Source: an uncultured Spirochaetales bacterium (lineage in GTDB: Bacteria; Myxococcota_A; UBA9160; SMWR01). Taken from it: a DNA stretch of 64,000 nt. The stretch spans positions 1,357-65,356 of the forward strand of contig CAYTJA010000088.1 of the NCBI GenBank assembly GCA_964437835.1. The letters are read 5' to 3'. Shown here one piece after another: positions 15,196 to 57,741 of the stretch. Both the position numbers and the translations under genes were made by a program. Numbering within the stretch: position 1 is the first letter of the stretch; each line of letters begins with the position of its first letter. The notes beneath the pieces were generated by a model that saw nothing but the letters and a program-made list of their open reading frames with translations, did no database searches and was not told the origin of the DNA.

Positions 15196-15197
15196 TT

Positions 15198-15401
15198 GTT
15201 GACCTTCGCTCGCCTGCGGCTCGCTGCGCGCGGCAGGGCCGCTTGCGGGTTGACCTTCGCGCGATTGCGGCTCGCTGCGCGTGACGGGGCGGCTTGCGTG
15301 TTGAGCTTCGCGCGCCTGTGGCTCGCTGTGCGCAGCGGAGCCGCTTGCGTGATGAGCCTCGTATGCCTGCGGCTCACTGTGAGCGGCATGACCGCTCGAG
15401 G
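15198..15401 (-). repeat. 4 tandem copies of a 51-bp GC-rich leader repeat (family shared with loci at 35.1, 50.4 and 62.5 kb)
   Basis: Unit starts at 15198, 15249, 15300 and 15351 (period exactly 51). The repeat fills the SurA-like/uvrA spacer. The uvrA-proximal unit ends in GAAGGTCAACAA followed directly by the GTG start. Confidence 0.95.
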
Positions 15402-26575: not shown

Positions 26576-26912
26576 CCCGGCGCTGCCGGCGCAGATCCAC
26601 CGCTCGAGAAGCGGCGCGCGCCCCGAAGCAGTCCGGCGCGATTTGCTAGTTCTGCCATGGGGGGAGATTCGCCAGCACCGCGCTGGCCATCTGGAAGAGA
26701 GCTGGGCTCCGAGCAGCACAGCGCGCGGATCTCTTCCGAGGGGCTCCTGCACGCGGGCCGAGGATCGGTGGCCGGCGCTGGCAGCGCAAGGCCGCCGCGG
26801 CGCAGCAGAGGGCCCGCGCTTGCCGCGGCCTCCCCACGGCTGGCTGCTCACCCTCCGCGCCCCCTCACTCGCTGCAACGCTTCCCATCTGCCCACGGCTC
26901 CGGCGCTTCGAC

Positions 26913-28742
26913 CTATCGGGCGCCCCCGCCCGTGCCGGATGCGCGCGCCGGCGTCGCGGAGAGCGGCTCGATCCCCGCGCGTACGAGCCACTCGGAGCGC
27001 ACTGCGATGAACGAGTTCGCCGCGACGGCGCCGCCCGGAAACCACTCCGATCCGGTCACGACGTTGCCCCATTGCAGGTCGACGGCGGTGAAGCCCAGCG
27101 CAGCGAGCTCCGAGATCCGCTCCGGAGGCCACCACCACAGGTCGAAGAGCAGGTCGGGCTCCGGAAGGCCGCAGCGCTTGCGAGCCGCAGGTAGCTGCTT
27201 CAGGAACTGCAGCGAGCTGACTGCCAGACCGCCCGAGGTTCTGCGCGCGCGCGCGTAGACCGGGCAATCCACGACCGAGCGCTCGACGAGACCCGCGTAG
27301 TCCACGAAGTGGAAGCGCCCGAAGGACGCGCGCGCGAGGTGATAGGGCACGATTCCCATCTGCAGGCTCGCGATCACGACCGGAACCTGCTTGTGCGCAG
27401 CGATGCGCTGCGCGAGCTGCTGCAGGCGGCCGATCACCGCGAGATCGCGCAGATTGGGCCGCGAGCGCCGCTCGAACCAGCCGAGTTTCCGGCCGAGCAG
27501 CGTATCGGGCAGCTCGGGCCGCACCCAGATCGGGAGGCTGGTCGACTCGCGCGCCGCGAAGCGCAGCGTGTCTGCGACTCCGATCGCGGCGAGCAGGGCG
27601 ACGGCTGCGGCGAAGCTGCGCCTCCCGCGCAGGATGCCGTCGAGGCCAACCGCTGCGAGCGCGAGCGAGAGCGGCATGAACATCGCGAAGAAACGCCCAC
27701 CTTCCATCCAGTCCCCGGTGCCGAGCACGAAGGCCGCGCAGGCGCCGAAGCACAGCAGCGCGAGTCGAGGCGCCGGGTCCGGCAGCGCTCCGCGCAGCGC
27801 CCGCCGCGCGAGGCGGGCACAGCCCAGGGCCGCGAGCAGCGCGAGGAACAGCATCCAGGGATGCGAGGCGACGCACCACGCGTAGTACGCGAGTCCCTGC
27901 TGCAGGGACGCCCAGGCGAGGCCTGCGGACTTCGCGTAGACGGGCTGCGGGAGCAGCCGCCCGAAATACAGCCAGCGGAAGCCGAGCAACAGCGCGGTCT
28001 CGAGCGCGGCGACGAGCGCGAGCTGCGCGAGTCGCCGCAGCTGCGAGTCGCTGCCTTCGCGCGCTCGGGCGCCGCCGCGCGCGCGATCCAAGAGCGCCCA
28101 TCCGAGCACTCCGAGCAGCGCGCAGCCAGCGAGGATCGGGCCCTCGGGTCGCACCAGCAGCAGCAGCGCCGTCGCGAGGGACGCGCGCGCGAGGCCCGCG
28201 CGCGTCGCCGCAGCCGCGCCGAGCCAATCGCTCCAGCTCGCGAGCACGGCCAGCAGCGAAACTGCGACGAGCGGCGTCTCGATCCCGCCGAAACACCAGT
28301 AGACGAAGTACGCGTTCGTCGCGAGCAGCAGCGCGCTGGCCCATCCTGCCCGTTCGGTCGCGAGGGCCCGGCCGAGCCGAAACGCGAGCGGGACCGCACA
28401 CCCCCCGATCGCGAGCATCGCGACATGCCCGAGCGCGACCGGCTCGAGCATGCGCGCGCTCGCCAGCCGCAGGGCGGCGATCAGCAGCGTGGCCAGCAGG
28501 CTCGAGCTCTGCTCGACGCGCTCGCCATTGTAGTTCCAGAGCTCGCCGTACTCCGAGAGACTGAACGCGCTCCAGTAGAGGATGTGCGCGTCGTCGCGCC
28601 CGGCGGCGGGGAAGAGCGCGAAGCCCTGCAGCAGCAGCAGAGCGGCGGGCGCGAGCGGCGCGGCGCGGCGCAGCCGGCTGCGGCGGTCGCGGGCTGCGCG
28701 GCGCGCGACTTCCGGCTGCGACTCCGGGGGCCGGAGCGGCAC
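26913..28742 (-). CDS. Large polytopic membrane protein, GT-C-like (putative lipid-linked glycosyl/arabinosyl-type transferase)
   Basis: About 12 hydrophobic segments with an acidic DD in the first predicted loop (AGRDDAHILYWSAF), then a ~230-aa soluble C-terminal domain. The GTG at 28742 shares 1 nt with the gpmI stop. The function call is weak. Confidence 0.5.
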   Translation of the reverse strand: MPLRPPESQPEVARRAARDRRSRLRRAAPLAPAALLLLQGFALFPAAGRDDAHILYWSAFSLSEYGELWNYNGERVEQSSSLLATLLIAALRLASARMLEPVALGHVAMLAIGGCAVPLAFRLGRALATERAGWASALLLATNAYFVYWCFGGIETPLVAVSLLAVLASWSDWLGAAAATRAGLARASLATALLLLVRPEGPILAGCALLGVLGWALLDRARGGARAREGSDSQLRRLAQLALVAALETALLLGFRWLYFGRLLPQPVYAKSAGLAWASLQQGLAYYAWCVASHPWMLFLALLAALGCARLARRALRGALPDPAPRLALLCFGACAAFVLGTGDWMEGGRFFAMFMPLSLALAAVGLDGILRGRRSFAAAVALLAAIGVADTLRFAARESTSLPIWVRPELPDTLLGRKLGWFERRSRPNLRDLAVIGRLQQLAQRIAAHKQVPVVIASLQMGIVPYHLARASFGRFHFVDYAGLVERSVVDCPVYARARRTSGGLAVSSLQFLKQLPAARKRCGLPEPDLLFDLWWWPPERISELAALGFTAVDLQWGNVVTGSEWFPGGAVAANSFIAVRSEWLVRAGIEPLSATPARASGTGGGAR

Positions 28743-42992: not shown

Positions 42993-43690
42993 GCGCGAGT
43001 GCCGAGGCACTGCGGCATCCGCTGCTCGAATCGCCGGTGGTGCCGCACGGCTTCGGCGTGCGTGGCGCGCCCGAGCCGCAGGGCGCGCTGCGCCCGCAGC
43101 AGGTGCACGGCCGCGACGTCGTGCGCGCCGAGCAGCTCGGCGCGGGCGAACGCCCCCGCGCCGATGCGATCGTCTCGTCGCGTCCCGGCCTTCCGATCGC
43201 CGTCGTCACGGCAGACTGCGTGCCGATCCTCGTGGCCGCGAGCGGCGGGCGCGCGGTGGCCGCGATCCACGCCGGTTGGCGCGGCCTCGCCGTGGGGGTG
43301 CTCGAAGCCGGCCTCGACATGTTAGGCAACGCCGTGCCGGGCGGCAGCACTTGCGCCGCGGAGTGGATCGCCGTCATCGGGCCCCACATCGGCCCCTGTT
43401 GTTACGAAGTGGACGAGCCCGTGCTCGACGCGCTCGCGAGCCGTTACAGTGGCGAGCTCGCGCGCTGTCTGCGGCCGTCGCGGCCCGGTCACGCGTTCCT
43501 GGATCTCGGTGAGCTCGCGCGCTGCACGCTGCTGCGCGCCGGCCTCCGCTTCCTCAACGTGGGGGCGATTCCAGGCGCGTGCACTCGCTGCGATGCCGAG
43601 CGCTTCCACTCGTTCCGCCGCGATGGTCCCGCTGCCGGGCGCCTGCTGCATTTCATCGCGGCCCGGTCCGAGGCGCCAGAACAGGGTTGA
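42989..43690 (+). CDS. pgeF: YfiH/PgeF family (laccase-domain, purine nucleoside/peptidoglycan-editing) protein
   Basis: VVTADCVPILV...AAIHAGWRG...CCYEV...CTRCDAERFHSFRRDG. The ATG overlaps the rluD stop (ATGA). Confidence 0.88.
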   Translation: MSASAEALRHPLLESPVVPHGFGVRGAPEPQGALRPQQVHGRDVVRAEQLGAGERPRADAIVSSRPGLPIAVVTADCVPILVAASGGRAVAAIHAGWRGLAVGVLEAGLDMLGNAVPGGSTCAAEWIAVIGPHIGPCCYEVDEPVLDALASRYSGELARCLRPSRPGHAFLDLGELARCTLLRAGLRFLNVGAIPGACTRCDAERFHSFRRDGPAAGRLLHFIAARSEAPEQG

Positions 43691-43715
43691 CACGCCCAAA
43701 CCTCCCGCATAGGAT
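43687..43715 (+). promoter_or_regulatory. Near-consensus sigma70-type promoter at the head of the 525-nt rho upstream region
   Basis: TTGACA (43687-43692, overlapping the pgeF stop), a 17-nt spacer, then TAGGAT (43710-43715). Confidence 0.45.
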
Positions 43716-44120
43716 TTCGACGATTCCAAAGCAGCTGTGCCGCGGCCTGTAGAGGCCATCCCAGGCGAGCCCTGGAACCACGGAGTCGGTACGCCTCGAA
43801 GCTGCGGGCGCCGCCGATACGGGGTCACCCCCGATCCCGAACGAGCCTGACCGCCGAGCATCGACCCCTTGGGGTCTCTCAGCCGAGGCAGGGCGCAGAT
43901 TTCCAATCAACTTTTTTTGCAGGGGATCCGAAGCTAGAGGAAACACAGGGCTCCATCAGATCGCGCTCGTGGACCGGTCTCTGCCAGGCCGCCCATCCCC
44001 CGGGCCAAAGCTCTGCACGTGCCGCGTGCAGCGCAGCGCCCCCGCGGCTCCACCGCAGATTCGGGCTCGAGAGCGATTCCCCCGCCTGACTCCCGATTTC
44101 CCTGGGAATGACTCACGCGA

Positions 44121-44200
44121 CACAGCTTCTTCCAACCACACTCATTGATTCGAATCCAACCTCACACCCCGTAACGATCCCAGCGATCGCGAATCAACTG
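44121..44200 (+). promoter_or_regulatory. C-rich/G-poor, low-GC leader segment immediately upstream of rho (rut-like)
   Basis: In CACAGCTTCTTCCAACCACACTCATTGATTCGAATCCAACCTCACACCCCGTAACGATCCC my hand count gives roughly 25 C against 5 G. This is very atypical for the window. Confidence 0.4.
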
Positions 44201-44214
44201 GAAAGCGAGACACC

Positions 44215-45765
44215 GTGACTAGCCAGCGAATCCCGGAAGCCAATTCCCAGCCCGGCCCTGGAGCAGGGGGCCCCGCTGGCGGAAATCGCTCGCGCCGCGG
44301 CCGCGGCCGCCGCTCGCGCGGAGGCAATGGACGCGACCCGCGCGACCCGCGCGATCCCCGCGATTCCCACGATCCCCGCGATTCCCACGATCTCCGCGAT
44401 TCCCGCGATCCGCGCGATTCCCGCGATCCGCGCAGGCTGCGGATGGACTATCCGGAAGACGATTCGCTCGACGACTTCGTCGACCGCGGCGACGACGAAG
44501 ACGACACCACCGAAAAGCTCCACGTCAACGACCTCAAGGCACGGTCGATGCAGGACCTCACCGACCTGGCAGAGTCCCTGCTGGTCGAGAACGCCGCCGG
44601 CAAGCGCAAGCAGGATCTGATCTTCGAGATCCTGAAGGCGCAGACCGCCAAGCAGGGCAAGATCTACGCGGAGGGCGTGCTCGAGACCCTGCCGGACGGC
44701 TTCGGCTTCATGCGCGCGCCGGACCAGAACTACCTCGCCGGTCCCGACGACATCTACGTCTCGCCGTCGCAGATCCGCCGCTTCAACCTGCGTACCGGCG
44801 ACACCGTCGTGGGTCAGATCCGACCTCCGAAGGAGGGAGAGCGTTATTTCGCGCTGCTGAAGGTCAAGTCCATCAACTTCGAGGCGCCCGAGAAAGCGCG
44901 CCACAAGATCCTGTTCGACAACCTGACGCCGCTGTATCCCCAGGTGAAGTTCAACCTGGAGGCGCGCACGGGCGGAGTGACCACCCGCATCATCGACCTG
45001 ATCTCTCCGATCGGTAAGGGACAGCGCGCGTTGATCAATTCGCCGCCCAAGGCCGGCAAGACGATGATCCTGAAGGACATCGCGAACGCGATCGTCGAGA
45101 ACCACCCCGAGGTCTACCTGATCGTGCTGCTGATCGACGAGCGGCCCGAAGAGGTGACCGACATGAAGCGCAACGTGAAGGCCGAGGTCGTGTCCTCGAC
45201 CTTCGACGAGCCGGCCACGCGCCACGTGCAGGTTGCCGACATGGTGATCGAGAAGGCCAAACGCCTGGTCGAGCATCAGCGAGACGTAGTGATCCTGCTC
45301 GATTCGATCACGCGCCTGGCGCGCGCCCACAACACCGTGGTGCCGCATTCGGGCAAGATCCTCTCGGGTGGCGTCGACTCGAACGCGATGCACAAGCCGA
45401 AGCGCTTCTTCGGCGCGGCGCGCAACGTCGAGGAGGGCGGCAGCCTCACGATCGTGGGCACCGCACTGATCGACACCGGCTCGCGCATGGACGAGGTGAT
45501 CTTCGAGGAGTTCAAGGGCACCGGAAACAGCGAGCTCGTGCTAGACCGCAAGCTCGCCGACCGGCGCACCTACCCGGCGATCGACATCAACCGCTCGGCG
45601 ACGCGGCGCGAAGAGCTGCTGCTTCCCGAGAAGACGCTGAACCGCATGTACATCCTGCGCAAGGTGTTGCAGCCGCTCTCACCGGTCGACTCGATGGAAT
45701 TCCTGCTGGAAAAGATCAAGGCGACGGACACCAACCAGGAGTTCCTGGAGTCGATGAATTCGTGA
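44215..45765 (+). CDS. rho: Transcription termination factor Rho with an N-terminal R/G/D-rich extension
   Basis: Canonical Rho from [21 protein letters not shown] (N-terminal helix bundle), through GFGFMR and the CSD-like RNA-binding domain, P-loop PPKAGKT, and the Q/R loops, to the C-terminus. GTG 44215 gives a 116-aa extension. The alternative ATG 44443 would leave the repeat region untranslated. Confidence 0.93.
44332..44430 (+). repeat. 11 tandem 9-bp units (CGCGAYYCN; 18-bp higher-order period) inside the rho 5' region
   Basis: CGCGACCCG x2, then alternating CGCGATTCC / CACGATCCC / CGCGATCCG units. In the rho frame they read [33 protein letters not shown]. Confidence 0.95.
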
Positions 45766-45786
45766 CCCCAGGCCGCTCGGCTCGGA

Positions 45787-46866
45787 ATGCCTGTGTCGGA
45801 GCTCCTCGACAAGATCGAAGTCTTCGAGCAGCGGGCGAACCGACTCGAGGAACAGCTCGCAGATCCCGCCATCGCGACGCAGGCCGGCGAATACGCGCGG
45901 CTCGCGAAGGAGCTTGCGGCGCTGCGCCCGGCCGCGCACTGCGCCGCGCGCTACCGCCGTTTCCTTTCGGAGCAGGCGAGCGCGCGCGCGATGCTGGCCG
46001 AGCCCGACGCCGAGCTGCGCGAGCTCGCGAAAGTCGAGCTGCGCGAGCTCGAGGCGCGGGAGCCCGAGCTCGAGCGCGAGCTGCGCGGGCACCTCATCCC
46101 GCGCGATCCGAACGACCAGAAGAGCGCGATCCTCGAGATCCGGGCCGGCACAGGCGGCGACGAGGCCTCGCTATTCGCGATGGAATTGTTTCGCATGTAC
46201 ACGCGTTATGCCGAGCGGCAGGGCTGGAAGGTCGAGCCGCTCTCGCTCTCCGAGAGCGAGGCCGGCGGGATCAAGGAAGTCGTCGCCGGTGTCTCCGGCC
46301 TGGGCGCCTTCAGCCGGCTCAAGTACGAGCGAGGCGTGCACCGCGTGCAGCGCGTGCCAGCGACCGAGAGCCAGGGCCGTATCCACACCTCGACCGTCAC
46401 GGTCGCGGTGCTGCCCGAGGCCGAAGAAGTCGACATCCAGATCGATCCGAAAGATCTGCGCGTCGACGTCTTCCGTTCCTCGGGCCCGGGTGGCCAGAGC
46501 GTGAACACGACAGACTCCGCCGTGCGCATCACCCATATTCCGACGAACGTCGTGGTGCAGTGCCAGGACGAGGAGTCGCAGCACAAGAACAAGGCGCGCG
46601 CGATGAAGATCCTGCGCTCGCGCCTGCTCGAGGCCGAGCAGGCGCGGGTAGACGCGGTGCGCGCGAACGAGCGCCGCTCGCAGGTAGGCCACGGCGAGCG
46701 CAGCGAGAAGATCCGCACCTACAACTATCCGCAGTCGCGGGTGACCGATCACCGGGCCGGCGTCACGCTGCACCAGCTCGAGAAGATCGTGCAGGGCGAT
46801 CTGGATCCGATCCTCGACGCCGTCCACGTCCACATGACTTCGCAGGCGCTCGGAGAGAAGCGATGA
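45787..46866 (+). CDS. prfA: Peptide chain release factor 1
   Basis: The PAT tripeptide ([14 protein letters not shown]) marks RF1, and the GGQ motif is present ([12 protein letters not shown]). Confidence 0.97.
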
Positions 46867-50444: not shown

Positions 50445-50605
50445 GCAAGGGGCCCTGCCCCGCGCAGTGAGCCGAAGGCGAACGAAGATCGTGAGGCTTG
50501 CAAGGGGCCCTGCCCCGCGCAGTGAGCCGAAGGCGAACGAAGATCACGAGGCTTGCAAGGGGTCATTCCCCGCGCAGTGAGCCGAAGGCGAACGAAGGTC
50601 ATGAG
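50445..50605 (+). repeat. 3 tandem copies of a 55-bp GC-rich leader repeat (same family as 15198-15401, opposite window strand, same orientation relative to the downstream gene)
   Basis: GCAAGGGG unit starts at 50445, 50500 and 50555 (period 55). The repeat fills the hisD-hisB spacer. The last unit ends in GAAGGTCATGAG, followed directly by the hisB ATG. Confidence 0.95.
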
Positions 50606-54006: not shown

Positions 54007-55851
54007 GTGCGCGGGGGGTTGGGTCGGGTTCAGGTGGTCGGCGACTGGCCATCGGGTCCGGGGGCGCGCTTGGGTCGAATCCCCGATGAAGTCATCCAGC
54101 AGCTCCGCGATCGGGTCGACATCGTCGATCTGATCGGCCGCTTCGTGACGCTCAAGCGCGCTGGGCGCAGCTACAAAGGTCTGTGTCCCTTCCACCAGGA
54201 AAAGACCCCTTCCTTCCACGTCAATCCGGATCGCCAGGCCTTCTACTGCTTCGGCTGCCAGGAGGGCGGCAATGCGATCAGCTTCTTGATGAAGGTCGAG
54301 AACCTGACCTTCCCGGAAGCCGCGCGCGTGCTGGCCAAGGAGATCGGCATCGAGATCCCCGAGACCGACGGCTCGGCTGAAAACGGGGCGGATCGGCTCT
54401 TCGACGCGCTCGAGCTCGCACAGGATTGCTACCGCGCCGCACTCGCCGCACCCGGCAATCCCGGCGCCCATTATCTCGAACAGCGCGGCATCGATGCCGC
54501 GACGATCCAGCGCTTCGGGATCGGCTTCGCGCCGGATCGCTGGGATACGCTCGTCACCGCGCTGCGCCAGCGCGAGCTTCCGGTAGAGATCGGCGAGCGC
54601 GCGGGCCTGCTCTCGGCGCGCGAGCGCGGCGGGCACTACGACCGTCTGCGCGGGCGCGTGACCTTCCCGATCCGCGACGTTCGCGGCCGCGTGATCGGCT
54701 TCGGCGGCCGGGCAATCGCAGCGGGCCAGGATCCGAAGTACCTGAACACCCCCGAGACCCCGATCTTCCGCAAGCGCGAGAGCTTCTACGGCTTCCCGCT
54801 CGCGCTCGAGCCGATCCGGCGCCGCGACCGCGCGGTAGTCGTGGAGGGCTATTTCGATCTCGTCGCGCTGCACCGCGCCGGCATCGAACACGTGCTGGCG
54901 ACCTGCGGTACGTCGCTCACGCTCGAGCACGCGCGCAACCTGCGCCGGCGCTGCCGGGACGTCGTCCTGCTCTTCGACGGCGACGAAGCCGGCCAGCGCG
55001 CGATGCAGCGCTCGCTCGAGGTCTTACTGCCCGAAGGTCTGCGCGTGCGCGCGGCGTTGCTGCCGGGCGGCCTGGATCCGGATGACTTCCTCCGCGATCA
55101 CGGCGCGGACGCGCTGCGGGCACTCGTGGACGGCGCACAGCCCGCCCTCGATCAGGTGCTGCGCCGGGCCGCGAGCCGCGGAATTGCGACTCCCTGGGAG
55201 AAGGCCGACGCCGTCGCCGCGGTGGCCCCGCTCGTCGCGCTGATTCCTTCCGCGGTCGAGCGCGCGGAGTTCGTGCGGCAGCTCGCGCTCGCAGTTGGGA
55301 GCGAGGCCGTGCACGTCGAGGCCGCCGTGCGCAGCGCGGCCGCGGGCGCCTCGGGCGAGGGGCCGCGGGAGGCCCTGCCGCCGGCTCCGGCGCGCAGGGC
55401 GCTGGACACCCCGGAAGAGCGCAACCTGCGCCGTATAGCTCAGTGCCTGCTGGATTTTCCGTTCCTGGCTGCCGAAATCGAGCTCGCTCTGTTGAGCGAT
55501 TTGCTGCCGGCCGACCACCCTCTCCTGGACGTGGTGAAGTTGCTGATGTGCGAGGACCTACGCGCGAGCGATGCTCTGGAGCGTGCGGTGGCTGGCCTGC
55601 GTCCGGAGGCCGCCGCGCTGTTGCGGGGTCTCGCGGCGGAGGGCATCGAAATCGACCTGGCCGGGGCGCAGCGAATCCTCGTAGACACTGAATTCTGGCT
55701 GCGCCGGCGCGCAGCGAAGCGGCGACAGCGAGAGCTGACGCAGCAGCTGCGCGAGCCCGGCGCCGACATCTCGCGCGTGCTGCGCGAAAAGGAAGCCCTG
55801 GTCCCCATTTCCCGCGGGCTCTCCGGTCCTCCCGGAGCGCCGCAGCCGTGA
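54007..55851 (+). CDS. dnaG: DNA primase
   Basis: Zinc finger CPFHQEKTPSFHVNPDRQAFYCFGC, then the TOPRIM region (VVVEGYFDLVAL...LLFDGDEAGQRA). The start is uncertain (GTG 54007 or TTG 54070, just before RIPDEVIQQL). Confidence 0.93.
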   Translation: MRGGLGRVQVVGDWPSGPGARLGRIPDEVIQQLRDRVDIVDLIGRFVTLKRAGRSYKGLCPFHQEKTPSFHVNPDRQAFYCFGCQEGGNAISFLMKVENLTFPEAARVLAKEIGIEIPETDGSAENGADRLFDALELAQDCYRAALAAPGNPGAHYLEQRGIDAATIQRFGIGFAPDRWDTLVTALRQRELPVEIGERAGLLSARERGGHYDRLRGRVTFPIRDVRGRVIGFGGRAIAAGQDPKYLNTPETPIFRKRESFYGFPLALEPIRRRDRAVVVEGYFDLVALHRAGIEHVLATCGTSLTLEHARNLRRRCRDVVLLFDGDEAGQRAMQRSLEVLLPEGLRVRAALLPGGLDPDDFLRDHGADALRALVDGAQPALDQVLRRAASRGIATPWEKADAVAAVAPLVALIPSAVERAEFVRQLALAVGSEAVHVEAAVRSAAAGASGEGPREALPPAPARRALDTPEERNLRRIAQCLLDFPFLAAEIELALLSDLLPADHPLLDVVKLLMCEDLRASDALERAVAGLRPEAAALLRGLAAEGIEIDLAGAQRILVDTEFWLRRRAAKRRQRELTQQLREPGADISRVLREKEALVPISRGLSGPPGAPQP

Positions 55852-55890
55852 TCGCAAACCCATGAGCTGAGGTCTAGGAGCACACCCCCC

Positions 55891-57741
<1,851 letters not shown>

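Follow-up and report, generated by a model that had tools for sequence, protein, structure and literature searches.

Type 2a Rho proteins are defined by initial regions that carry arginine-rich motifs and are predicted to be disordered, and the Rho proteins of Xanthomonas campestris and X. oryzae are examples (PMC11347177). According to that survey, these proteins have more than 25 aa before the Rho_N domain, nothing is inserted between Rho_N and the RNA-binding domain, and their initial regions show compositional bias, RxR-type arginine-rich motifs, predicted disorder, and species-variable length (PMC11347177). Repeated motif copies are also noted there in the initial regions of Xanthomonadales. 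The rho gene in the 64-kb stretch of DNA analyzed here (the window) encodes a protein that is similar in most of these respects. Its coding sequence (44215..45765, + strand, stop codon included) has a GTG start and specifies 516 aa, based on the ORF list, Pfam domains, and alignment of its start with those of relatives. The Pfam domains Rho_N (PF07498, residues 106–148, 52.6 bits), Rho_RNA_bind (PF07497, residues 153–226, 115.7 bits), and ATP-synt_ab (PF00006, residues 257–462, 99.1 bits) all scored above their cut-offs. This order of Rho_N, Rho RNA-binding (OB), and RecA-type ATPase domains places the protein in the Rho family, and it is 82–97% identical to annotated Rho proteins (full-length alignment A2). 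There are 105 residues before Rho_N from GTG 44215 (29 aa from ATG 44443), and no insertion longer than 25 aa lies between the end of Rho_N (residue 148) and the start of Rho_RNA_bind (residue 153). A conserved RxR-type arginine-rich motif can be read directly from the sequence at residues 25–35. This architecture agrees with that of Type 2a Rho proteins, whose initial region is a known kind of Rho variation; none of the features of the locus amounts to a new kind of system. Unlike the Xanthomonas proteins, the initial region here is of unrelated sequence and has an RGRGRR block, RDPR, and an acidic block instead of APA/QN motifs. Unlike in the Type 2a examples, its length varies by clean tandem amplification, in 9/18-nt units, of a single tripeptide. 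The clade is Myxococcota-like, and the survey sampled 12 Myxococcota species, whose Rho types are not described in the text searched (PMC11347177).

Disordered regions have been linked to RNA binding in other Rho proteins. Mycobacterium tuberculosis Rho requires its disordered insertion to engage structured Rut sites (PMC13650167), and the Arg-rich insertions of M. tuberculosis and Micrococcus luteus Rho raise RNA affinity (PMC13650167, PMC11347177). In B. thetaiotaomicron Rho, RNA-driven condensation is controlled by an interaction between basic and acidic motifs of the IDR (PMC13269538); the basic motifs are responsible for RNA binding and for condensation, and the acidic ones autoinhibit (PMC13269538; Krypotou et al., 2023, cited there). 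In the window, the initial region (residues 1–105, 44215..44529, + strand), recognized by protein conservation and codon positions, is putatively disordered, based on AF2 and composition. It consists, in order, of a Gly/Pro/Ser-rich head, a basic RGG-like block, RDx repeats, RRLR, and an acidic block. The basic Arg/Gly block (residues 24–39, 44284..44331, + strand, net charge +7) is the most conserved part of the extension, with R28, G29, and R32 invariant in alignment A1. The acidic block (residues 77–101, 44443..44517, + strand, net charge -11), recognized by conservation and charge, has ATG 44443 as its first codon, and its (D/E)(F/Y)PDD(E/D) motif and acidic run are conserved in the same alignment. 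Charge blocks along the extension are +7, -2, +3, and -11; the charged fraction is 0.45, and the hydrophobic fraction is 0.13 compared to 0.40 in the core. AF2 gave residues 1–98 a pLDDT of approximately 35 and no secondary structure, but the model was mediocre overall (mean pLDDT 55.8, 37-sequence alignment), so the low pLDDT is weak proof of disorder.

Like the M. tuberculosis and M. luteus regions, the extension is a putatively disordered Arg-rich region near the primary RNA-binding site in a high-GC organism. However, those regions are inserted between Rho_N and the OB fold (Type 2b/2c), are much longer (from approximately 150 aa upward), and are not tandem tripeptide repeats. Resemblance to the B. 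thetaiotaomicron IDR is in layout only, with short conserved motifs of opposite charge in one IDR; that IDR is a K/E-rich, prion-like insertion with demonstrated ppGpp control, whereas the region here is an N-terminal extension. Eukaryotic arginine-rich mixed-charge (RD/RE/RS) domains, such as those of NELF-E (the RD repeat) and U1-70K, are associated with RNA binding and condensate targeting. An alternating Arg/Asp low-complexity tract in RNA-processing or elongation factors is common to these proteins and the Rho described here, but this is resemblance only; there is no homology, and the bacterial tripeptide unit contains Pro/Ser.

The preliminary description offered two readings of the repeats at the 5' end of rho: a translated, disordered N-terminal extension, or an untranslated rut site in the leader of a protein that starts at ATG 44443. 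This ATG is indeed in frame just 3' of the array, and it and GTG 44215 are the only in-frame starts after the stop before 44149. Neither has a strong Shine-Dalgarno sequence, as had been observed (-4.9 kcal/mol at GTG and -2.6 at ATG, with a background mean of -3.3). The purine-rich candidate ribosome-binding region before GTG (GGAAAGCGAGACACC; 44194..44214, + strand), which forms the stronger anti-SD duplex, is kept in close relatives, and distant ones have purine-rich equivalents. GTG 44215 aligns with a conserved GTG/TTG start in 10 relatives. In all ten related lineages checked at the DNA level, the frame is open to the same GTG/TTG, and the start codon is non-ATG in these lineages and in the window. 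They include two that are annotated fully "short" (L177 and L179), two annotated from the internal Met (L083 and L085), and two annotated a few codons late (L081 and L088); the missing N-terminus is encoded upstream in six of six late-annotated relatives checked in this way. Start codons of the 58 homologues with the conserved N-terminus are GTG (34), ATG (20), and TTG (4). Met77, encoded by ATG 44443, is not conserved outside the closest clade, and most relatives have A, V, G, P, S, or other residues at this position. The database protein P0002 (NCBI-derived, 440 aa, 100% identical) is annotated from ATG 44443, and the annotation of three close relatives begins at the corresponding Met. Comparison with relatives suggests that the 440-aa protein is probably short by 76 N-terminal residues, its annotated start being too late. 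The basic block is absent from the annotation in 45 of 122 close homologues. Because of late annotated starts, Rho architecture surveys that use annotated proteins will report too few N-terminal initial regions in this clade. A second, shorter isoform may also arise by initiation at ATG 44443. The extension had been described as 116 aa in length; the corrected figures are 76 aa when counted to the ATG and 105 aa when counted to the Pfam Rho_N domain.

Comparison of rho 5' regions among relatives revealed conservation at the amino acid level, with repeat copy number that varies. At least 58 homologues have in common an N-terminus of the form [V/M/L]-S/T-x-Q/H-R...RRGRGRR-x-RGGNG-x-RDPR...(D/E)FPDD(E/D). 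The nucleotide alignment for the coding test consisted of the window and lineages L081, L083, and L085. Differences by codon position were 0.079/0.087/0.41 in the extension outside the repeat and 0.03/0.01/0.30 in the Rho core, and those in the leader were flat by codon phase (0.33/0.37/0.38, window versus L081/L083/L085). All 11 gap runs in the extension were multiples of three (3, 3, 3, 3, 3, 6, 6, 6, 45, 54, and 63), compared to three of 33 in the leader; unit-count differences were also always in frame, in agreement with the earlier statement that copy-number changes keep the frame. In an 18-residue block overlapping the basic block, the 57 codon pairs that differed among four lineages were all synonymous, with no non-synonymous pair; the same pairs read in the other two sense frames gave synonymous:non-synonymous counts of 0:57 and 5:52. 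These synonymous changes, together with position-3 periodicity and triplet-only indels, argue for purifying selection from GTG 44215. Translation of the repeats and purifying selection on the extension are strongly supported by these comparisons. GC3 is lower in the extension (0.73) than in the core (0.91), but low extension GC3 is common to 10 of 11 relatives and is thus no argument against coding. Two other open reading frames were considered and rejected. These are the +1-frame ORF at 44327–44620 ("AIPAIP...", high GC3) and a long antisense ORF at 44194–45393. Substitutions in the two alternative sense frames were almost all non-synonymous, and ORFs of this type are usual at 70% GC.

Tandem Repeats Finder (TRF) identified one array at 44332–44433 (+ strand), either with period 18 (5.7 copies, 88% matches, score 134) or with period 9 (11.3 copies, score 113), with zero indels. 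According to TRF, the unit table, and the counts in relatives, this 9/18-nt repeat encodes eleven (R/H)-D-(P/S/L) units and the first RRLR codon. The array was present where it had been placed, but the former end coordinate (44430) was 3 nt short. Eleven 9-nt units lie in the rho frame as described; nine of them match CGCGAYYCN exactly, and the other two start with CAC (His). The RGG-like 19-residue peptide reported directly before the repeats is present in the translated ORF. When the window was simulated 20 times with a first-order Markov model, TRF scores reached no more than 84, compared to 134 for the array, so the array is not due to chance. The 8-mer CGCGAYYC is not enriched across the window (51 observed, approximately 64 expected), and the non-random feature is the occurrence of nine exact copies, in register, at 9-nt spacing. 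Without window-wide enrichment, the 8-mer was rejected as a dispersed binding site common to the leader. The last eight units form four near-identical 18-nt double units, and this near-identity indicates that expansion of the array was probably recent. The array is C-rich and G-poor, as previously noted (C 49%, G 24.5%); its C-G value of 0.245 is at the 99.8th percentile among 100-nt windows, and its C>G bubble of 90 nt is the ninth-longest in the window. The reported preference for GAT was also evident, with Asp codons at GAT 9 : GAC 2 in the repeat versus GAT 2 : GAC 24 in the core. Both the C-richness and the GAT bias follow from the codons that were amplified (CGC-GAT-CCS/TCC) and do not reflect selection for an RNA signal.

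Copy number of the RD(P/S) unit varies among relatives. Most have one unit, L088 has none, and P0086, from another subclade and known as protein only, has two, possibly by an independent duplication. Sister lineages have four (L081/82), five (L083/84), or six (L085/86/87) units, compared to 11 in the window; the latter count comes from one contig of one metagenome-type assembly, and tandem repeats are prone to mis-counting, although 102 nt is short. Counts in the other lineages were identical across independent assemblies of the same lineage. The units of relatives sit at the same place and in the same frame as the window array, and they differ at synonymous Arg codons (CGT/CGG/AGA/AGG). Alignment A1 has conserved blocks with the insertion placed exactly at RDPR, and the distance between the basic-block core and the (D/E)(F/Y)P motif is 44 residues here compared to a median of 18. 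Throughout the wider clade, a single RDPR is kept. From this distribution, the single RDPR motif is taken to be ancestral, and the 11-unit array to be a lineage-specific in-frame amplification of it. Otherwise approximately 97% identical Rho proteins with 0, 4, 5, 6, and 11 tripeptide copies between the basic and acidic blocks form a natural series. They are a ready allelic set for relating IDR linker length and mixed charge to RNA capture, termination, and condensation. Among the matches listed from a reference-genome scan with the Rho core, one was a close relative (L001, which ends at a contig edge), and this extension was absent from the other 79 loci listed. The matches listed from a metagenome scan with the generic pattern [LMK]RKQDLIF were distant Rho genes that were uninformative for copy number. 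A homologue search with the extension alone gave one match, P0121, a low-complexity protein that is not a Rho, presumably due to composition filters that penalize this query.

Autogenous attenuation in the rho leader occurs in E. coli, in Salmonella with the sRNA SraL, in B. subtilis, and in Caulobacter (PMC11599450, PMC12360218). A rut descriptor quoted in PMC11347177 calls for a C>G bubble and at least six YC dimers at 9–13 nt spacing; we implemented it ourselves and computed the bubble over local windows of 31 nt. In the untranslated rho leader, a C-rich, G-poor tract at 44063..44193 (+ strand) has the composition and spacing of this descriptor and is a candidate rut, based on its bubble, its YC chain, and its conserved skew. 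It is the longest + strand C>G bubble in the window (131 nt), with a YC-N9-13 chain of nine. The C/G ratio in the 150 nt before the start is 1.35–2.18 at 11 of 11 loci (z 1.4–3.5). The repeat array has a C>G bubble (90 nt), but its longest YC-N9-13 chain is four, below the six required; it is also under coding constraint and downstream of the conserved GTG, and so does not qualify as untranslated RNA. We infer from these features that the leader tract is a better rut candidate than the array for rho autoregulation. In this high-GC lineage, the rho leader contains a candidate rut region that is conserved.

The best explanation, and a highly probable one from comparative evidence, is that the repeats are coding, that Rho starts at GTG 44215 with a 105-residue initial region predicted to be disordered, and that the RDP unit was amplified in frame. 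The initial region has a conserved layout in three parts: first comes a basic block (RRGRGRR-x-RGGNG), then the short motif RDPR, and last an acidic block ((D/E)FPDD...). In this genome, the 9-nt R-D-P unit is amplified to 11 in-frame copies. Replication slippage or unequal recombination is the likely cause, and the latest step would have involved the 18-nt double unit. RNA capture is suggested by the M. tuberculosis and M. luteus insertion data; by this analogy the basic block may increase affinity or avidity for RNA close to the primary RNA-binding crown, and this could help on GC-rich structured transcripts. The acidic block may be able to fold back onto the basic block and act there in autoinhibition or in the tuning of condensation, and the alternating-charge RDx array might set the reach and valence of this interaction. 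A further proposal, which we consider doubtful, is that the array is an evolvable "length dial" in an autoinhibited basic/acidic switch that retunes termination or condensation between lineages. If so, 9/18-nt slippage would alter the valence of the disordered arm with which Rho captures RNA and how far this arm reaches, four lineage-specific Ser and two His residues might add phospho- or pH-sensitivity, and C-rich repeat RNA might also reinforce Rho's autoregulatory loading zone.

Translation from ATG 44443, with the repeats acting as a periodic YC-rich rut in the 5' leader for autoregulation, would agree with the annotated starts of P0002 and three close relatives, the C excess and 90-nt bubble of the array, the low GC3 upstream of the ATG, and the leader attenuators that autoregulate rho in several bacteria (PMC11599450). 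It is nevertheless extremely improbable and already contradicted by the comparative data. Constraint on the peptide extends from GTG 44215 (57:0, differences concentrated at codon position 3, and indels in triplets only), at least 58 homologues keep the extension peptide, most relatives have another residue in place of Met at 44443, and the Shine-Dalgarno sequence is weaker at ATG than at GTG. Because the repeat is missing from most relatives, there is no conservation of a periodic rut, and the YC chain in the array is two short of the descriptor. Of the two readings in the preliminary description, this one falls, and the translated, putatively disordered extension stands, with a peptide conserved back to GTG, synonymous changes, triplet-only indels, and no AF2 structure in residues 1–98. 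Dual use has also to be weighed, in which the repeats are translated and their C-rich RNA, which follows closely on a weak GTG start and on the C>G tract of the leader, also extends the Rho-loading region of the leader. Poor rho initiation would then lead to early Rho termination in its own gene, and expansion would strengthen autoregulation in this lineage. The leader tract is the longest bubble in the window and is conserved at 11 of 11 loci, the array forms a second bubble of 90 nt located 140 nt downstream, and the start is non-ATG with a modest Shine-Dalgarno sequence in the window and non-ATG in 10 of 10 lineages. Matsumoto and colleagues are said to have described in 1986 that E. coli rho attenuators reach into the early coding region, which would favor dual use. 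Leader-based rho autoregulation is also established in other bacteria (PMC11599450). Even so, dual use is improbable: codons for R-D-P/S fully explain the C-richness, most relatives lack such a tract, the 9-nt period is a poor fit to the YC spacing descriptor, and the two bubbles are separated by G-rich sequence at 44215–44331 (C/G approximately 1.0).

Length changes are generally tolerated by disordered linkers, and the 11-copy array could have arisen by neutral slippage in such a linker, or by assembly error, with no functional consequence. Free variation in copy number among sister lineages (0, 4, 5, 6, and 11), near-identity of the newest units in DNA, and the presence of the 11-copy version on one contig only are consistent with this. 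We consider it possible but somewhat unlikely. The RDP units of relatives have diverged at synonymous sites while the peptide was kept, suggesting selection on the repeated peptide; a single RDPR is conserved across the wider clade, and counts are reproducible in independent assemblies of other lineages. This alternative concerns function only and is compatible with the preferred reading that the tract is translated.

An Rfam search of 43000–46000 had no matches, and a tRNA scan identified none. A conserved leader island at 43888–43980 was rejected as an RNA structure, as its consensus fold was weak (-7.8 kcal/mol) with one compensatory pair. A consensus scan located a candidate sigma-70-like promoter, TTGACA-N17-TAGGAT (43687..43715, + strand), at the end of the upstream pgeF-like gene, and the same element is present at six of 11 related loci. 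This candidate promoter implies a putative rho 5' UTR of approximately 490 nt. A long 5' UTR and a conserved C-rich, G-poor tract before the start codon are also features of autoregulated rho leaders; compared to those, the leader here has no Rfam match, and its candidate rut is the tract at 44063–44193 rather than the repeat array.

The rho gene is an open reading frame of 516 codons on the + strand (GTG 44215 to 45765), and its product is clearly Rho. It lies in a window of 70% GC in the order rluD-like, pgeF-like (Cu-oxidase_4), a 524-nt gap, rho, prfA, prmC, and murA-like, and this order is identical in all related contigs fetched, as far as each contig reaches. The nearest named relatives are uncultured "Myxococcales/Myxococcota/Deltaproteobacteria bacterium" assemblies. 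Pfam places Rho_N at residues 106-148, the RNA-binding domain at 153-226, and the ATPase at 257-462; because Rho_N begins at residue 106, residues 1-105 form an "initial region." In the NAR 2024 survey, Type 2a Rho is defined by an initial region of >25 aa ahead of Rho_N (PMC11347177), and the window protein has the domain order of Rho and the domain arrangement of Type 2a.

Tandem Repeats Finder located a single array without indels near the 5' end of rho (44332-44433, + strand), scoring 134 as an 18-nt unit (5.7 copies, 88% matches) and 113 as a 9-nt unit (11.3 copies). The top score among 20 Markov-simulated 64-kb windows was 84, and the array is more than a chance occurrence. It is in register with the rho frame, and eleven units read through. 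The preliminary description had reported eleven CGCGAYYCN units; eleven in-frame units are present, but only 9 of the 11 match exactly, and two begin with CAC. Its descriptions of the array as preferring GAT over GAC (Asp codons GAT 9 : GAC 2, versus 2 : 24 in the Rho core) and as C-rich and G-poor (49% C, 24.5% G) were accurate. The CGCGAYYC 8-mer occurs 51 times in the window, against about 64 expected, and is thus not enriched; only the tandem arrangement of its copies is unusual. On the minus strand, which is the rho template strand, the array creates a canonical G-quadruplex motif at 44337-44386 (G3+ tracts, 5-6 nt loops). The window holds five motifs of this type (three on the + strand, two on the - strand), and the one in the array is probably a by-product because relatives with fewer units do not share it. 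Other strong tandem arrays lie at 50445-50605 (55 nt x2.9, 93% matches, score 280), 15197-15396 (51 nt x3.9, score 225), and 28642-28720 (38/18 nt, score 107/70).

Two readings of the array had been proposed: that it is translated as part of a disordered N-terminal extension, or that translation starts at ATG 44443 and the repeats are an untranslated leader acting as a Rho-loading (rut) site. An in-frame ATG follows the array, as had been noted. This ATG and GTG 44215 are the sole in-frame start codons past the upstream stop; Shine-Dalgarno pairing is weak at both, also as described. Read in the rho frame, the core has a GC3 of 0.91 and 44215-44442 one of about 0.7, and the low value of the extension is found in 10 of 11 loci, so it is a regional property rather than a sign of non-coding DNA. 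Composition leaves the translation question undecided, and comparative evidence settles it. The same N-terminus is annotated in 58 of the best 120 homologues. In the N-terminal protein alignment (A1), this N-terminus runs from [V/M/L]-S/T-x-Q/H-R through a Gly/Ser-rich stretch, RRGRGRR-x-RGGNG, x-RDPR-K, and (D/E)(F/Y)PDD(E/D) to an acidic run into Rho_N. The GTG codon of the window and the following TSQR fit this pattern exactly. The start at 44443 is the one annotated for P0002, a homologous protein 100% identical to that of the window; a Met in this position is confined to the closest clade, the column elsewhere holding A, V, G, P, S, L, and others (A1).

Coding constraint was compared in a nucleotide alignment that starts at the end of pgeF, runs into rho, and includes the window and the three lineages nearest to it. 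The leader shows no periodicity in its differences (0.33/0.37/0.38 for the three phases), and only 3 of its 33 gap runs are multiples of three. From GTG, with the array excluded, the extension has phase differences of 0.079/0.087/0.41 (0.03/0.01/0.30 in the core), and the lengths of its 11 gap runs are all divisible by three (3,3,3,3,3,6,6,6,45,54,63). Within an 18-codon block of the extension, all 57 differing codon pairs are synonymous in the rho frame, versus synonymous : non-synonymous ratios of 0:57 and 5:52 in the other two frames. The conserved peptide, position-3 periodicity, triplet gaps, and synonymous-only block all favor a translated extension and place the start at GTG 44215 rather than at the clade-specific internal Met. 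These alignments lead us to conclude that GTG 44215 is the translation start and that the repeats are part of the protein; the 440-aa protein derived from NCBI most likely lacks its first 76 residues.

The rho frame was extended upstream in ten related lineages, among them loci annotated as fully "short" (L177, L179), from an internal Met (L083, L085), or a few codons late (L081, L088). In all ten, the frame continues uninterrupted to a start codon that aligns with 44215 (TTG in one, GTG in the rest) and encodes the extension; judged by these frames, annotated rho starts in this clade are unreliable. Among homologues with the conserved N-terminus, annotated starts are 34 GTG, 4 TTG, and 20 ATG, and all 11 loci examined at the DNA level, window included, start with GTG or TTG, so that the conserved start, as aligned, is usually non-ATG. 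Annotation without the basic block in 45 of 122 homologues probably reflects N-terminal truncation. A practical outcome is a start-codon correction for rho.

The comparison of rho 5' regions suggested in the preliminary description revealed conservation of the extension at the amino-acid level and in-frame variation in copy number. In most relatives, a single RDPR motif separates the basic block from the acidic block. The number of RDx units is 0 in L088, 1 in most relatives, 2 in P0086 (a protein from another subclade), 4 in L081/L082, 5 in L083/L084, 6 in L085/L086/L087, and 11 in the window, where a single assembly stands behind the count. Counts are always in frame and are equal between independent assemblies of one lineage. 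In sister lineages, R-D-P is kept and Arg codons have diverged synonymously (CGC, CGT, CGG, CGA, AGA, AGG), so the repeated peptide has been maintained for some time. The last eight units of the window are four near-identical 18-nt double units (CGCGATTCC + CRCGATCYS), which argues for recent expansion by slippage or unequal recombination. Amplification of this unit accounts directly for the GAT bias and C-richness of the array. The span between the basic-block core and the (D/E)(F/Y)P motif has a median of 18 residues in 67 relatives; in the window it is 44, the longest observed. The glycine run before the basic block (44254-44283 and its equivalent in L081, L083, and L085) also differs in length from one sister lineage to another through triplet indels (GGGGGGGG in L081 and L085, GGGGGAGGG in L083, a 10-residue version in the window); it is a second small length-variable tract within the same predicted disordered region.

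Disordered, arginine-rich, length-variable Rho N-terminal regions, some with repeated motifs, are already described (PMC11347177). Particular to this case are the basic/RDPR/acidic layout, conserved within a Myxococcota-like clade, and the clean series of tripeptide-repeat expansions among sister lineages, which offers a natural allelic series for IDR studies. The initial region consists of a Gly/Pro/Ser-rich part (residues 1-23, net charge 0), a basic block (24-39, +7), the RDx array (40-72, -2, 61% charged residues), a short stretch (73-76, +3), and an acidic block (77-101, -11), with a hydrophobic fraction of 0.13 versus 0.40 in the core. In an AF2 model built from a 37-sequence alignment, residues 1-98 have no secondary structure and a pLDDT of about 35, and helices begin at residue 104; with the mean pLDDT of the model as a whole at a mediocre 55.8, this supports disorder without proving it. 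In Mycobacterium tuberculosis Rho, a disordered insertion is required genome-wide for engaging structured Rut sites (PMC13650167). In Bacteroides thetaiotaomicron Rho, condensation is driven by short RNA-binding basic motifs in the IDR, and acidic motifs interact with these in an autoinhibitory manner (PMC13269538). By analogy, the conserved basic block would probably raise affinity for RNA in this genome of 70% GC, RNA and the acidic block may compete for the basic block, and the RDx array could set spacing and valence between the two. A distant gammaproteobacterial Rho (L073, Woeseia sp. MAG) has an in-frame basic-then-acidic N-terminal stretch upstream (NKGGGGNRRRRRRSPNG...DDDGNLEV), so similar extensions of this charge-block type may have had more than one origin.

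Rut descriptors (C>G bubble, YC-N9-13 chain) were computed with our own implementation. By C-G skew, the array ranks within the top 0.2% of the window, and it forms a 90-nt C>G bubble. As an untranslated rut site it was rejected: it lies in translated sequence, its longest YC-N9-13 chain is only 4, and it is absent from most relatives. The longest + strand bubble in the 64-kb window is in the leader directly before GTG (44063-44193), with a chain of 9. The 150 nt before the start have a C/G of 1.35-2.18 in all 11 loci, and their skew is among the most extreme windows in 9 of the 11. A sigma-70-like promoter match (TTGACA-N17-TAGGAT, 43687-43715) lies across the stop codon of the pgeF-like gene upstream, predicting a rho 5' UTR of about 490 nt; an equivalent element occurs in 6 of 11 related loci. 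Leader attenuators control rho autogenously in Escherichia coli, Salmonella, Bacillus subtilis, and Caulobacter (PMC11599450), which makes the leader at 44063-44193 a plausible candidate autoregulatory rut region; the array might at most add to it.

The leader is otherwise poorly conserved around an island at 43895-43970 (GATTTCCrATCAACTTTT...GCAGGGrATCCGAA...GATCGCGCTC) found in the window, L081, L083, L085, and partly L088. The weak consensus fold of the island (-7.8 kcal/mol, one compensatory pair) suggests a sequence-level site, which may bind a protein or sRNA or be a second promoter. Two more regions of extreme + strand C>G skew lie at 26816-26942 and about 55831-55980; the latter holds AGGAG...ATG followed by a Pro-rich reading and is possibly another low-complexity N-terminus.
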